NCBI GenBank assembly: GCA_964016885.1
Contig: OZ024741.1
Coordinates: 383,098,001 to 383,162,000, forward strand
Direction of reading: 5' to 3'
Length of the DNA stretch: 64,000 nucleotides
Source of the DNA: Eledone cirrhosa
Lineage: Eukaryota
This document shows, one piece after another, positions 11,205 through 63,383 of the stretch (within the stretch, counting starts at the first letter, position 1; each line of letters begins with the position of its first letter). The notes under the pieces are model-generated. The model worked only from the letters and a program-made list of their open reading frames with translations, was not told where the DNA came from and made no database searches. A program made the translations under genes and the position numbers.

Positions 11205-11380
11205 TAACGAAGGAAGTGTGTTAAGGAACCAGGTGGACCACAATGCACCCGAGTACTCGATACTTTGCCTAGTAGAGTGGGTAATAGGAAAAGGTTCAGG
11301 ACCCCGGCGGCAGAGCTCACGCCTTTCAACGGCCATTTCTGGACTCAGAAATAGCCGTGGGGGTCCTCAACCTTTTCCTA
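11205..11380. mobile_element. Family H foldback mini-element (diverged)
   Basis: Tail aacgaaggaa...gagtgggta plus hairpin ending ttcctat, inside (TA)n. Confidence 0.8.
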
Positions 11381-13529
11381 TATATATATATATATATATA
11401 TATTCATATGCATATATATATATAAATATATATTTATTTATATACGTGTGTGTATGTATATATATATATATATATATGTGTGTGGGTGTGTGTTGTGTGT
11501 GATTGTGCGTGTTTGAGACTCCTTTTCAATCGTCCGATGTCGATAGACTAAGAACCAAACAAATCACTAGATTCGATAAAATCTTCTAAAACTTTTCAGA
11601 TAAATGACCTAGGCTGGCTACATTCCAATCGGCAATGAAACCAGTAAAAAAAGGTTTTTACTGGCTGATTTCTCTGGAAGAAGATTGTATATCTGTCAAT
11701 AATATCAATTGAATTTTACAAACATAATCAATTATTGAACGCTATTAAATCATCTGATGTCTGCTATTCAATACAGACAGCCAATGCGGGTGAAACTTCA
11801 TAGAGAAACGTTTCATCTATAATATAGTAATCCATATTTTTAGTTTTAAAATTGTTTTATCACGTTTTCTATATCCAGTGATCAGTTTCAAAGCTGCAAG
11901 TAGTAATACGTGAAAAAAGGTTGCTTTTATTTTTTGTTTGTTTTTCTTCTTGTCCTAGTATGCATGATAAATTACGCAACTGAGCTTATTTTTTAGTTTT
12001 CCTTCCGCTTAGCCAGTTCGTATGTGCATCGTCTACATTTTTTGCAAGATTCTCAAAACGTAGCACACATTTTCCCCTTTAACTACACTCTACAAGTAAG
12101 GATATATTGGATAAGATAATCCTACTTAGATTAAAGAAAAGCCAGGACCTTCCCAATATCTCATAAAAACAGGCTTTACTGTTAATTATAACGTTGAAAT
12201 GTTCATGAATTTTCCGTAGCTATATGTGAAGTACTTGAAGTGAAAGAAGATTCCAGCGAAATTCCTATCAAAATTACTGTTTCAGGGCATCTAGTTCAAT
12301 AGCAAAATATCATACACTCAGAACAACTTATAAACAAAACATACATTTACATCAGTCAATCTGGGAACTGGTATAGTCCAGTATCTATATCTATATCAAT
12401 CAATCTAAGAACTGATATAACCCAGTATTATATGAAATCGCATTAATAACTTCCATTGAAATTACAAAATGTCTTTTTAATTACTATTCTTGAATAGAAA
12501 TCTTCAATTGTTAGATGAATATGCATCTAATTAGAGATTTCCGCTGTTTCGCTTATTCTGTTTCATATATTTCATATTGATAGCAGTAATATTGAGAAGT
12601 TACCACGGTATGCTTTATGTCTTGATGTGTGTCCTTCAATACATGTTAGTATATATATATATTTATATATATGAGTGTGTGTGTGCATACTTATATGTGT
12701 TTGGGTATGTGTATATGCTTATACATTATATATGCATGCGTGTATGTAGATCTCTCTCTCTCTCTCTCTCTCTCTCTCTCTATATATATATATATATATA
12801 TATATATATATATATATATATATATATATATATATATATATATATATTTATATATATGTATACATAGATAGATGGGTAGATAGATAGGTAGATAGATAGA
12901 TAGATATATTTCTTTTTTTGCCTCAGGGGCGTACAAAAATGGGACATTTATAGACATTATAAGACGTGACGGCGGAGGTTTTACATAAAATCTTTCACAA
13001 TGATAAATAACAATAAACTATATCAAAATAAAACAAATAAAATCCCCATTAGAGGGCGTGGGGGGGGGGGGGGGTAACGCTACTGCAGGGCTGTTTTACA
13101 TCCCGTGGATAGAACAACCCTCAACACCAGGAACACATTTTGTATGTGTTTCCGTCTTCCCTCTGTTTATCTTCCTCAACCTACAGATTTATATACAGAG
13201 AAGGCGCATAGATAGGTAGATATATATATATATATATATATATATATATATATATATAGATAGATAGATAGATAGATAGATAGATAGATAGAATAGACAT
13301 ATAAACAAGCAGATAGATAGGTACATTATTAATTCAGCAACAACCACATGGTAAATAGAGCAACATATTAAAAATTGGCTGATGGTCCGCGAATCATGGG
13401 AGATTTAATCTAATCTAGTAATTAAAATACAGTGATAAGAATCACGGGATATGAAAAATTCAATATCACCATGCTCTACAACAGTTGACTATACTGATTG
13501 CGATAACTAAAGGCATTTTCTCGCCAGGA

Positions 13530-14050
13530 AATTGCAGGAAACATAACTTACTAGACGACAAAATATCATAGAGGGTAACCACACTACCTGAGTCACAGAG
13601 CAATATTTGTCCAGGAAGCTATATTTTTGCCAACAACATTTCTAAGGTAAATGTCAAGAGCAAACCAGTCCTGTTCATCGATTTACATAAATCATTCGAC
13701 ATTGTAAACTGGTATATGTTTTGAGACGTTATGACGAAGGGGGATATATAAGAAAACCGGTGAGTTGGCCACACTTCTACACGAAGGAACAGGCTGAAAC
13801 ACCACCGAGAAACACGGTGTGAAACGTATCCCAGATTAAAAGAGCGCCACATCCTCATGTCCAGACTATTTGTTATTTGTGTACGTGCAGTCTCAGTGAA
13901 GCTTTCAAACATCCCTGCGTCAGCCTGAGCAGTATCTACCGCATTGACAGCGAGAAAGTGAATAATAAATGACTGAAGGATTTGATGAAATGGCATTAAA
14001 ATCAGATTGCGAGATTTGCCCTATATCGTTGGCTATGTAGTCGTCACGTG
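13530..14050 (+). pseudogene. Degenerate RTE (BovB-like) RT fragment
   Basis: LPESQ, LFIDLHKSFDIVN and YRID motifs with stops. Confidence 0.6.
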
Positions 14051-14096
14051 AAAGGTTCATAAACACTGGTACCAAATTATACTAAGCTAACGTCAG

Positions 14097-14952
14097 CTAA
14101 AATCCTAGTCATTTAGAACATTTAGGGTGCATACATAATTGTTGTTAGTGTCATAGGCATCAAGTGGAGAGTCAGGAGTTAAAAAGATGTTCTGCTTGAA
14201 AGAACACAATTACAGGCAGCATTGTTTGAAAGTGTAATAAGTATAAGTAAAAAGTACAAGCAAAAAAATGGAATTTACATTTAACAAACAACGACCTATT
14301 GGCTATAAATGACTCACAATAATCCCATGGTTAATAGTTGTGAGTAACAAACAACATACACATATACATACGAACTACAACATAAAAACACCTCAATGAA
14401 AATCACATATCCAACTCTAACAAGTGCTTTGCATTACACCTTACATAACAAATACCTACATTGTCACCACATGCCTCTCTAACAAATTGCACACTATTTC
14501 AAACATGTATAATAATTATAACATGTATTATCACCCAACACAAAATATGTTTATTTCAACTGCATTATAACTCTTTCCTCATACATGCCTTATTGACTGT
14601 ATTGACTCCTGCATTGTACACCAATTTTGCTTGATTATAACTTTTTAGCCTGTGTTTTTTTTTTGCTTGTGATTTCTTTGCTTGTACTTTTTACTTATAC
14701 CTATTACACTTTCAACCAGTGCTGCCTGTAATTATGTTCTTTCAAGCAGAACATCTTTTTAACTCCCGACTCTCCACATGATGCGTATGACACTAACAAC
14801 AACTATGTACCCTAAATGTTCTAAATGACTAGGATTTTAGTAATATGTTTCGACATTCCTTATGCTCCGATGATACCAGACCTCCCTCTGGAAGAAACAA
14901 TTGTCATCAAGTAAATGTTCTAAAATAAAATGTTGTCGTTTTAACGCTTTGT
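14097..14952. mobile_element. Foldback pLTR-like element with a degenerate hammerhead
   Basis: 14097-14268 inverted against 14670-14841; downstream tgct CCGATGA ta ccaga cctccc tctgg aa GAAA caattg TC at 14861-14910. Confidence 0.65.
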
Positions 14953-14974
14953 ATATATATATACATATATATAA

Positions 14975-61124: not shown

Positions 61125-61770
61125 AAATGGAAAAAACGAAATTTCATTTCTCACTCTTAGTACGGCTGATATTTAAGTGTAAGTATGTATACGTACATAC
61201 ATATATGTATACAGACGTACAGTAGTATGTATATACATACATACATGCACACATATATATATACATATGTACGTATGGATTTACCGAACATTTATTATAA
61301 TGCTCGGTTTGTTTGTAAACCCATACGTACATATATATATATATATATATATATATATATATATATATATATATATATATATATATATATATATATATAT
61401 ATATATATATATATTTATATATATATATATATGCATGTGTGTATGTATATACATACTACTGTACGTCTGTATGTACGTATACATACTTATATTTAAGTAT
61501 CAGCCCTACTAAGAGTGAGAAATGAAATTCCATTTTTTCCATTTATCGTTTTCGGTACGCCCGGCCGACTAACTTACTCGATATGCAAATTAGTGTGCTC
61601 AGCCGTTAATATGCATAAGGAAAGTATATACTTTCAAACGTTCAATCAACTGACAGGAAGGGATACGGTGCCGATGACAGCTAATAAGCTAGAAACTAGT
61701 TAATCATTCCTTTGTCAGTGTTGAACAAATAGGGCAGCGATGGTTGCCGAACACTGTACGGTTAATAATT
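61125..61770. mobile_element. Family K foldback (partial arm, (TA)n, inverted arm spanning the unit junction)
   Basis: Degenerate HHR at 61665-61707: acggtg CCGATGA c agct aata agct a GAAA ctag TT. Confidence 0.8.
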
Positions 61771-62604
61771 CGGCTAATAATTCTTCTCTCTCTATACAAA
61801 TATTTGTGTTTATATATATATATATATATATATATTTCTTTAAGTCGTTTGGAAACGTCGACAATGCAGATGGGTAAATCTCCGGGTAACACGATCCGGT
61901 GGTGGAGAGAGAGATGTAAGTGCGTGTACGTTGAGATGCGTGGTGTGTATAAGACTGTAACGTGTAGTGGAATCAAGGAAAGAGCGTAAAGGATAAAAAT
62001 AAAATTAACAACACGAGAAAGAGTTACCTTGGGAGAGATTTAATTGTCCCTATATATTTCGGATTCAACTGGGTTTTTCCGGGGGGTGGGGAGGTTGTCC
62101 GTCGGAAAGGTGCGAAACGTGTCCTTCGCTGTTCGTTGTTTTGAAACTAGGGCCACAATTAAACAACCGATCCGAGAGAAGCGAAATGAGATGGTTGGTT
62201 TAAGTTAACAAACGATGCAGCAACACACGCACACACACACAGGCGAGACAGCAACACACGCACACACACACACACAACACAAACTTGTAATAGAAATAAT
62301 AATACTAATAATAGGTTTATAGTGAACATTGTCCAGATCCCAGTGGTGTAAATATCCATGAGTAATCATGGTTACATTGACACGCATGGGCAGTTATTTT
62401 CTAAACAGCGACATAAAAATAGCATTGCTCAACTCATATATATATATATACCATCATATATCCAATGAACTACAGAAAAACTCAGTCTATGCATTGCAAA
62501 TATAAGAACAATATATTGAATAGTTATGATTAACATGATTCAATACATGTATATAAATAAATATATATATATATATATATATATATATATATATATATAT
62601 ATAT

Positions 62605-62835
62605 AGTAATAATAATAAATTTGAAGACTAAAATCCAAAGAGGGCTCGATAAGGATAAATATATGTCAAATATATAAGAACCGTAGAGCAAATATTTATT
62701 AAAATAACAGATTAAAGTTTAAGCAAAGAATCGCTGCTTTCACCCTTAACGGGATCTTCTGAATCAGAAGATCCCGTTAAGGGTGAAAGCCGCGATTCTT
62801 TGCTTAAACTTTAATCTGTTATTTTTTAATAAATA
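62605..62835. mobile_element. Family M foldback mini-element
   Basis: Centre cttctgaatcagaag near 62763; arms ~75 bp; tail on the left; (TA)n flanks. Confidence 0.85.
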
Positions 62836-63190
62836 TATATATATATATATAATTATATATATATATATATATATATATATATATATATATATATATATAG
62901 AGAGAGAGAGAGAGAGAGAGAGGGAGAGAGAGAGAGAGTGAGAGAAAGAGGGAGAGATAATAAGAACATGCGAAGTAGTTTCAATGATCTCTTCAGACAG
63001 CTTCTTACATAATAAGGTTACGTTCTCGAGGCAATTAAAACGATGAGGGAACTGACAAAGATGATGTTCTTGAAGCCTTATATAATATATATATATATAT
63101 ATATATATATATATAATTTTATATATATATATATATATATATATATATATATATATATATATATATATATATATATATATATATATATAT

Positions 63191-63383
63191 ATAGGAGTAA
63201 GTAAGACCCCGACGGCTGAGCTCAAGCCGTTTCGACCGCTAATTCTGTACAGAATTAGCTGTCGAAACGGCTTGAGCTCAGCCGTCGGGGTCTTACTTAC
63301 TCCTATTACCCACTCTACTACCCTAAGTATTGAGTACTTTGGTGCGTTATGGTCCACCTGGTTCCTTACCACTTTTCCCTCGC
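63191..63383. mobile_element. Family H foldback mini-element
   Basis: Centre ctgtacag near 63249, tail on the right. Confidence 0.88.

Follow-up and report, generated by a model that had tools for sequence, protein, structure and literature searches.

Penelope-like elements (PLEs) of the Hydra clade, the C-terminal endonuclease-bearing (EN+) group described in PMC8557442 that includes Hydra-1_Obim, encode a reverse transcriptase (RT) followed by a GIY-YIG endonuclease, with RW(R), DKT, CxCX5C, CxxC and CxH motifs. They insert at (TA)n targets, carry a hammerhead ribozyme in pseudo-long terminal repeats (pLTRs), and have an inverted 5'-truncated copy and a tail at one end. Here we analyse family H, a PLE family represented by nine mini-elements in a 64,000-nt stretch of the Eledone cirrhosa genome (contig OZ024741.1 of assembly GCA_964016885.1, positions 383,098,001 to 383,162,000; hereafter the window, whose own numbering is used below). 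Family H shares all of these features. It differs in having a unit of 3.1–3.5 kb with a long 3' untranslated region (UTR), compared with 'generally' <3 kb, a tail of 79 nt rather than 30–40 nt, and a U3-A8 ribozyme core. In addition, it is dominated by short stubs that share a sharp inner end, a feature of which we found no description in PMC8557442.

PAc Poseidon, a PLE of another clade studied in vitro (PMC11167929), has its tail defined by two internal sites at which RT starts, and both target strands are cut and extended, as family H copies also suggest; truncation of its RNA at the 5' end shortens the product. Whereas the Poseidon open reading frame (ORF) starts inside the hammerhead, that of family H starts 213 nt downstream, and we found no treatment of a genomic run-off point or of head-to-head joining in that paper. 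The PLE hammerheads catalogued in PMC4209133 resemble those of family H in being of type I, with a long helix II, a palindromic loop 3, U3-A8 and pairs of motifs on opposite strands 100–700 bp apart. Helix III of family H, at 5–6 bp, is closer to fungal and protist forms, and the putative start of its RNA splits the ribozyme, hence most copies hold the 3' half only. Finally, the non-LTR retrozymes (where LTR stands for long terminal repeat; bioRxiv 10.64898/2026.07.22.740005) are likewise non-coding, PLE-derived and provided with a type I hammerhead, but they are tandem units each with a whole ribozyme, whereas family H forms inverted stubs with half of one.

Parent element and inner ends of the stubs

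A preliminary description of the window held that the mini-elements, which look like miniature inverted-repeat transposable elements (MITEs), are really retro-products, and called for the autonomous PLE to be found. Both points are borne out: the mini-elements are 5'-truncated 3' stubs of a Hydra-clade PLE from the same genome. At locus L206 we found a complete 3,118-bp unit whose RT and GIY-YIG ORF runs for 719 aa without interruption, together with a partial tandem forming pLTRs, an adjacent inverted 5'-truncated copy and a tail at one end (maps of L206–L208); the second of the two units measured is 3,523 bp long. The predicted protein matches the Hydra clade by the motifs given in PMC8557442, with RLRWR at residue 35, DKT at 117, CNCPDRSIC (CxCX5C) at 572, CNLC (CxxC) at 670 and CKH (CxH) at 698, in addition to YRDD and YIG. 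A Pfam search with three fragments of the protein and a PDB search with one fragment gave no match. The stubs are in direct continuity with this ORF: a body such as that at 15357 is preceded by about 1.2 kb of 3' UTR and, before that, the ORF, while at L115 and L020 the tail continues into the 5' UTR and the ATG. Positions in the element are counted from the G of the hammerhead GAAA (0), with upstream positions negative; the two outward ends of the stubs are the short end (+43) and the tail end (+122). The ATG is at +213, i.e. 231 nt downstream of −18, so that a full-length element reads −18, +43, +122, ATG.

The family is very large. Two exact 18-mers from the tail matched 27,716 and 19,797 times, giving at least 47,513 tails genome-wide, and 13,455 exact fold-backs were found with 0–24 nt between their two −12 points. 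Reversed-pattern controls gave 0 matches against these three counts and against the 60,695 arms that match to −12 (see below). With the 15357 body as query, 2,981 candidate places were found genome-wide, of which 40 were scored. TA repeats follow 135 of 143 sampled tails, and arm lengths are continuous up to full length.

In order to locate the inner ends, tail arms were collected from loci anchored on the tail 18-mers (first 22 Mb of one contig), from 200 kb beside the window and from the window itself; loci chosen by body sequence or long arms (L001–L030, L061–L080, L206–L215) were excluded from the histograms. A hotspot of arm ends lies just upstream of GAAA genome-wide. Among 143 tail arms, 110 of them accompanied by a short inverted arm, 77 end at −22 to −11, 12 at −8 to −1, 3 at −28 to −34 and 9 beyond −110; the other 42 end downstream of GAAA. 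A stricter walk over 149 arms that reach −8 resolved the hotspot into a wall: 111 end between −12 and −18, 15 at −19 to −22, 10 at −8 to −11 and 13 further out, with modes at −18 (28 arms) and −17 (23) and a trough at −16 (8). Across the genome, matches extend to −12 in 60,695 arms and to −26 in 5,631; allowing for divergence and missed variants, we estimate that 10–25% of arms pass the wall. Similarly, the longer arm ends at −17 or −18 in 25 of 44 sampled fold-backs and, by hand count, in 31 of the 50 listed among the 13,455 exact ones, in which it never passes −22. The earlier description had most copies folding back inside the stem II region; most ends sit in loop II at a single wall and are not spread over stem II. 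That the copies are independent events, as also claimed, is supported by 38 distinct junction strings in the 44 fold-backs. Most junctions are blunt or within 2 nt, and a junction of −18 with −12 recurs in 6 of the 50 listed.

The wall coincides with the A, and the next G, of a conserved initiator-like TYAGT in loop II, beyond the strong helix. Although the surrounding loop diverges, all 10 aligned subfamily copies keep the AGT at −18 unchanged. In run X3, which may be the assembly's own sample, summed contig depth steps up about 35-fold across the wall; in runs X1 and X2 coverage is confined to an AT-rich piece of 36 nt. Walls were also found in two further families. N15 (window 24273–24330, plus strand; L169, L089, L191–L205) is a related PLE repeat with a canonical CUGAUGA, a TATA box and an initiator. 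It has 2,042 exact fold-backs; by a hand count of the 50 listed, the end of the longer arm falls on the A or G of CC[A]GATT in 45. This wall lies 5–6 nt upstream of CUGA, and in two parents its A is 30 and 32 nt after TATAAAT. For N7, the mode of arm ends is at the A of TTAGT(TT) (7 of 44). We found no description of a wall, or of run-off stubs, common to many PLE copies in the openly searchable literature, a search that leaves aside subscription papers and Repbase.

Probable run-off at a putative RNA start and its alternatives

We consider it probable that the stubs arise by head-to-head joining of two cDNAs, each primed at one of the two PLE start sites and extended until it ran off the 5' end of the RNA. 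In such a scheme, the PLE protein would prime two cDNAs, one on each strand of a cut (TA)n site, on an RNA that begins at the initiator inside hammerhead loop II. Run-off from the copies of the RT start sites in the 5' UTR would give cDNAs about 60 and 140 nt long. End-to-end joining of their 3' ends would involve trimming, microhomology or small inserts, and long copies would arise from start sites in the 3' repeat or via a jump. The outward ends are consistent with this, one arm being nearly always at +43 and the other at +122, while both inner ends cluster at −18/−17. Each of 47 fold-backs contains a tail arm, whose partner is a short arm in 43 and an unclassified end in 4; +43/+122 is also the usual pairing in long insertions. 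The two arms agree in the subfamily-diagnostic segment in 39 of the 47, compared with 17% of random pairs. The 15357 copy, whose arms end at −18 and 527 nt into the 3' UTR, is as expected if one mRNA carries start sites at both ends. Arms with mixed upstream and downstream subfamily marks were observed at L026, L075 and L121, suggesting template switches near GAAA.

The wall at −18/−17 likely marks the start of the element's RNA, and we infer that −18 is a capped start. If the RNA starts at −18, its 5' UTR would contain the two RT start sites, at distances of 61 and 140 nt from the RNA end that equal the arm lengths of a typical stub. Initiators have the consensus YYANWYY, and a TATA box lies at about minus 30 from the start; YYANWYY is present at the wall in 4 of 5 parents. 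A start site with an initiator has been described in the pLTR of D. virilis Penelope (PMC2377424). Since untemplated G residues at L1 and SVA 5' ends have been ascribed to the cap (PMC3287187), we also considered the base beside −18. Where both arms stop there with 2–3 nt between them, it is G in 59 of 100, the parental T in 28, C in 6 and A in 7 (hand count); a second set gave 8 G, 2 A and 7 parental T, two of the G cases being neighbours. In N15, the base beside the wall is G in 8 of 11 (hand count).

Several observations weigh against this interpretation. YYANWYY occurs 3–12 times per 420 nt and is therefore weak as a motif alone, and no wall is present within the 70–80 nt examined of N1 and N8, two of the four families used as controls. 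A single CAG/CTG insert accounts for 46 of the 59 G residues and could also be a templated copy of −14 to −12; with this insert set aside, 13 G stand against 7 A, of 54. An unselected sample gave 17 C, 9 G and 2 A. A first cap test scored 64 of 72, but its control was equally biased (65 of 82) and the test was dropped; both biases can be explained if arms that ended at −17 then received a G. A cap-derived G is thus suggestive only. All three full-length copies run past −18 of the upstream repeat, two of them having been selected in ways that favour this, so that a read-through RNA or a template jump is needed. A few tail–tail pairs exist (L047/L048, L207, L213), and the frequent −18/−12 junction has no explanation in parents with TTAGT. 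Finally, the walls of the three families also resemble YAG splice acceptors.

This last resemblance leads to an alternative that we regard as unlikely, namely that something other than a transcription start, either an endonucleolytic cut of the RNA or a protein sitting on a splice-acceptor-like site, creates the wall and halts both cDNAs at −18. The H, N15 and N7 walls all fall on a YAG after a T-rich tract, and a 5'-UTR intron ends near the hammerhead in other PLEs (PMC4209133, PMC8557442). However, none of 76 junction arms matches an upstream exon with a GT donor and no spliced copies were found. In addition, the arms include the AG, with −16 as the trough, subfamily C retains TTAGTTC without a T tract, and the N15 wall has its TATA box 30–32 nt upstream.

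PMC3846280 proposes for palindromic PLE junctions that a single cDNA, or an antisense template, folds back and primes itself. The origin of both arms from one subfamily in 39 of 47 fold-backs would fit such self-priming, as would the recurrent −18/−12 junction, which suits a snap-back of 3–4 nt in TCAGT parents. The second arm has a fixed outer end of its own, however, at +43 and not at +122, and in the 15357 copy a short-end arm of 527 nt stands beside a tail arm reaching only 18 nt upstream, so that neither can have copied the other. With junctions that are mostly blunt or within 2 nt, self-priming appears quite unlikely.

The preliminary description had instead supposed that the stable ribozyme helix stalls or redirects RT. 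The hotspot does adjoin stem II, and a weak extension of this stem is predicted up to about −22, so that structure is not wholly excluded. Few ends lie in stem I, stem III or the strong part of stem II, all of which are crossed before the wall: 12 of 143 tail arms end in strong stem II (−8 to −1), compared with 77 beyond it (−22 to −11). The peak is only 2 nt wide, the predicted hammerhead fold costs 0–12 kcal/mol above the best fold, and the N15 wall lies outside stem II, which counts against stalling there. We therefore hold this explanation to be very unlikely.

Amplification of a non-autonomous family from a few master hairpins would account for the very high copy number and for junctions that recur, but it is highly improbable given the 38 distinct junctions in 44 fold-backs, the presence of a recurring junction in different subfamilies and the continuity of arm lengths up to full length. 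DNA-transposon MITEs with terminal inverted repeats, to which the hairpin shape and TA flanks might point, are ruled out by the unequal arms, variable centres and continuity with the RT and GIY-YIG ORF.

Run-off followed by head-to-head joining permits a further, tentative step. In LTR retroelements, minus-strand strong-stop DNA is produced when RT initiates close to the 5' end of the RNA and falls off the template at the cap. If the run-off inference holds, family H stubs are alike, although primed by target DNA, made twice and fixed as a head-to-head stub, and not those of an LTR element. The stubs could then be strong-stop DNAs that failed to jump: RT proceeding from the 5' UTR to the cap would have to jump to the 3' repeat for long or more-than-unit copies, and about four in five attempts would fail and be sealed head to head. 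The start site would also split the hammerhead, so that the RNA would begin with a substrate half on which the enzyme half in the 3' repeat could act. We regard this extension as possible but doubtful.

The hammerhead and the copies in the window

Contrary to the earlier expectation of a CUGANGA upstream, the family carries a U3-A8 variant or, in one subfamily, C3.A8. Subfamily A1 is over-represented in the sample of 58 complete copies, of which 37 have the core CUGAGAA, 11 UUGANAA (N being G, A, U or C), 2 UUGAAGA and 8 another sequence. We read the core as U3-U4-G5-A6-N7-A8-A9, because N7 varies; U3-A8 is a known variant among PLE hammerheads (PMC4209133). The C3.A8 mismatch belongs to subfamily A1 (window 15959; L061 and others), which is abundant and has given rise to stubs and long copies in spite of it, so that cleavage may be dispensable. 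Disruption of the 3-8 pair abolishes another PLE hammerhead, and hammerhead cleavage is not required for insertion in vitro (both PMC11167929).

In the three helices, 92% of cells are paired, with one two-sided change, and covariation is weak (12 of 500 shuffles). Stem III with a palindromic loop, as described earlier, was recovered: 5–6 bp (where six, A-U, C-G, G-C, G-C, C-G, U-A) close a loop of 7 nt, with GAGCTC invariant in 10 of 10 aligned subfamily copies. An Rfam scan of the window listed 150 of 193 matches, mostly sub-threshold microRNA matches on hairpins, with no hammerhead among those listed. A few arms that end downstream of GAAA do so at the predicted cleavage site (+22 to +24), namely 4 of the 42 such tail arms and 5 of the 12 such short arms. 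At L206 (4346–4366), the putative start site splits the hammerhead in loop II and would leave a substrate-like half at the RNA 5' end; cleavage of this half in trans is speculative.

The nine copies in the window are located at 11205, 14975, 15357, 17418, 41614, 54622, 56914, 57429 and 63191, every one adjoining (TA)n, as the preliminary description had it. Two inverted arms of >30 nt are present in seven of them. Centres vary, as also reported, but one copy does not turn in stem II: in the fold-back stub at 14976–15135, the tail arm (minus strand) extends to −2 and the short arm (plus) starts from about +6, so that the turn is in stem III. Only the 15357 copy keeps the 5' half of the hammerhead, again as claimed. 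Its tail arm (15359–15496, minus) reaches precisely to the A (−18) of the initiator-like motif, with a G adjoining, and its short-end arm (15497–16063, plus) comprises 527 nt of 3' UTR and the whole hammerhead (core at 15959, GAGA at 16022) and ends at +43. This arm has a substitution in each core strand (CUGAGAU, and GAGA instead of GAAA); its own initiator-like motif in loop II is at 16004–16010 (plus), the A at 16004 being −18, the putative transcription start.

The remaining stubs turn mostly at or near the wall. At 11207–11380, the tail arm (11207–11345, minus) extends to −18 and the short arm (11346–11380, plus) starts from −14 with stem III deleted. The stub at 41615–41816 has a short arm (minus) to −20 and a tail arm (plus) from −19; among the pieces shown from three runs on 41618–41815, none bridges this junction, which is neutral either way. 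At 54623–54807, a short arm (minus) to about −6 is followed by a tail arm (plus) from −17, and at 63192–63383 both arms extend to −17 and overlap in a 4-nt palindrome. One stub (56917–57144) turns beyond the wall, with the tail arm (minus) to −34 and the short arm (plus) from about −35. The stub at 57430–57580 has a short arm of only 12 nt (57430–57441, minus), with its inner end at about +31, and a tail arm (plus) from −18 at 57443. The copy at 17418–17475 is a lone short arm (plus; −16 to +43) without inversion.

Related elements and meaning

Family H is clustered locally, with 8 tails in the window compared with 2 in the 200 kb beside it. A clean deletion of GAAA and stem III between two GCCGT repeats, as at 11346–11380, recurs at L012, L045, L088, L147 and L170, always in one arm only. 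N7 hairpins at 62714–62812 and 17319–17390 have a non-canonical core, CAGAAGA, and some N7 hairpins contain the CAG insert of family H. Another Hydra-like PLE lies at 7188–8951 between inverted arms (6980–7206 and 9502–9728); its protein is 41% identical to that of family H and has one in-frame stop. Adjoining the 57429 stub, a broken Hydra-like RT/EN fragment (57810–59235) is only 39–52% identical to the family H protein and thus belongs to a different family. An open PLE-like RT and GIY-YIG frame of 782 aa is present at 19082–21430, and the 3' part of this 782-aa element forms a fold-back at 44531–46040 with arms of 657 nt that are 100% complementary. A hammerhead-bearing repeat, N12, occurs at 53686 (minus strand) and has at least 91 matches. 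Many of these lie in L091–L095, which are upstream of the window, and suggest a retrozyme-like array in tandem.

The kind of element and its architecture were known. What family H adds is a sharp inner wall, likely marking the RNA start, as a new and testable regularity. How the inverted ends of PLEs are built is named as an open question in PMC8557442 and PMC3846280. In family H, independent junctions number in the tens of thousands and share a wall 2 nt wide, which makes them a natural record of inverted-end formation. From DNA alone, these junctions yield a prediction of the exact start site, and they speak for twin priming rather than fold-back. Caution is also called for in genomes of this kind, in which MITE-like hairpins can be PLE stubs.

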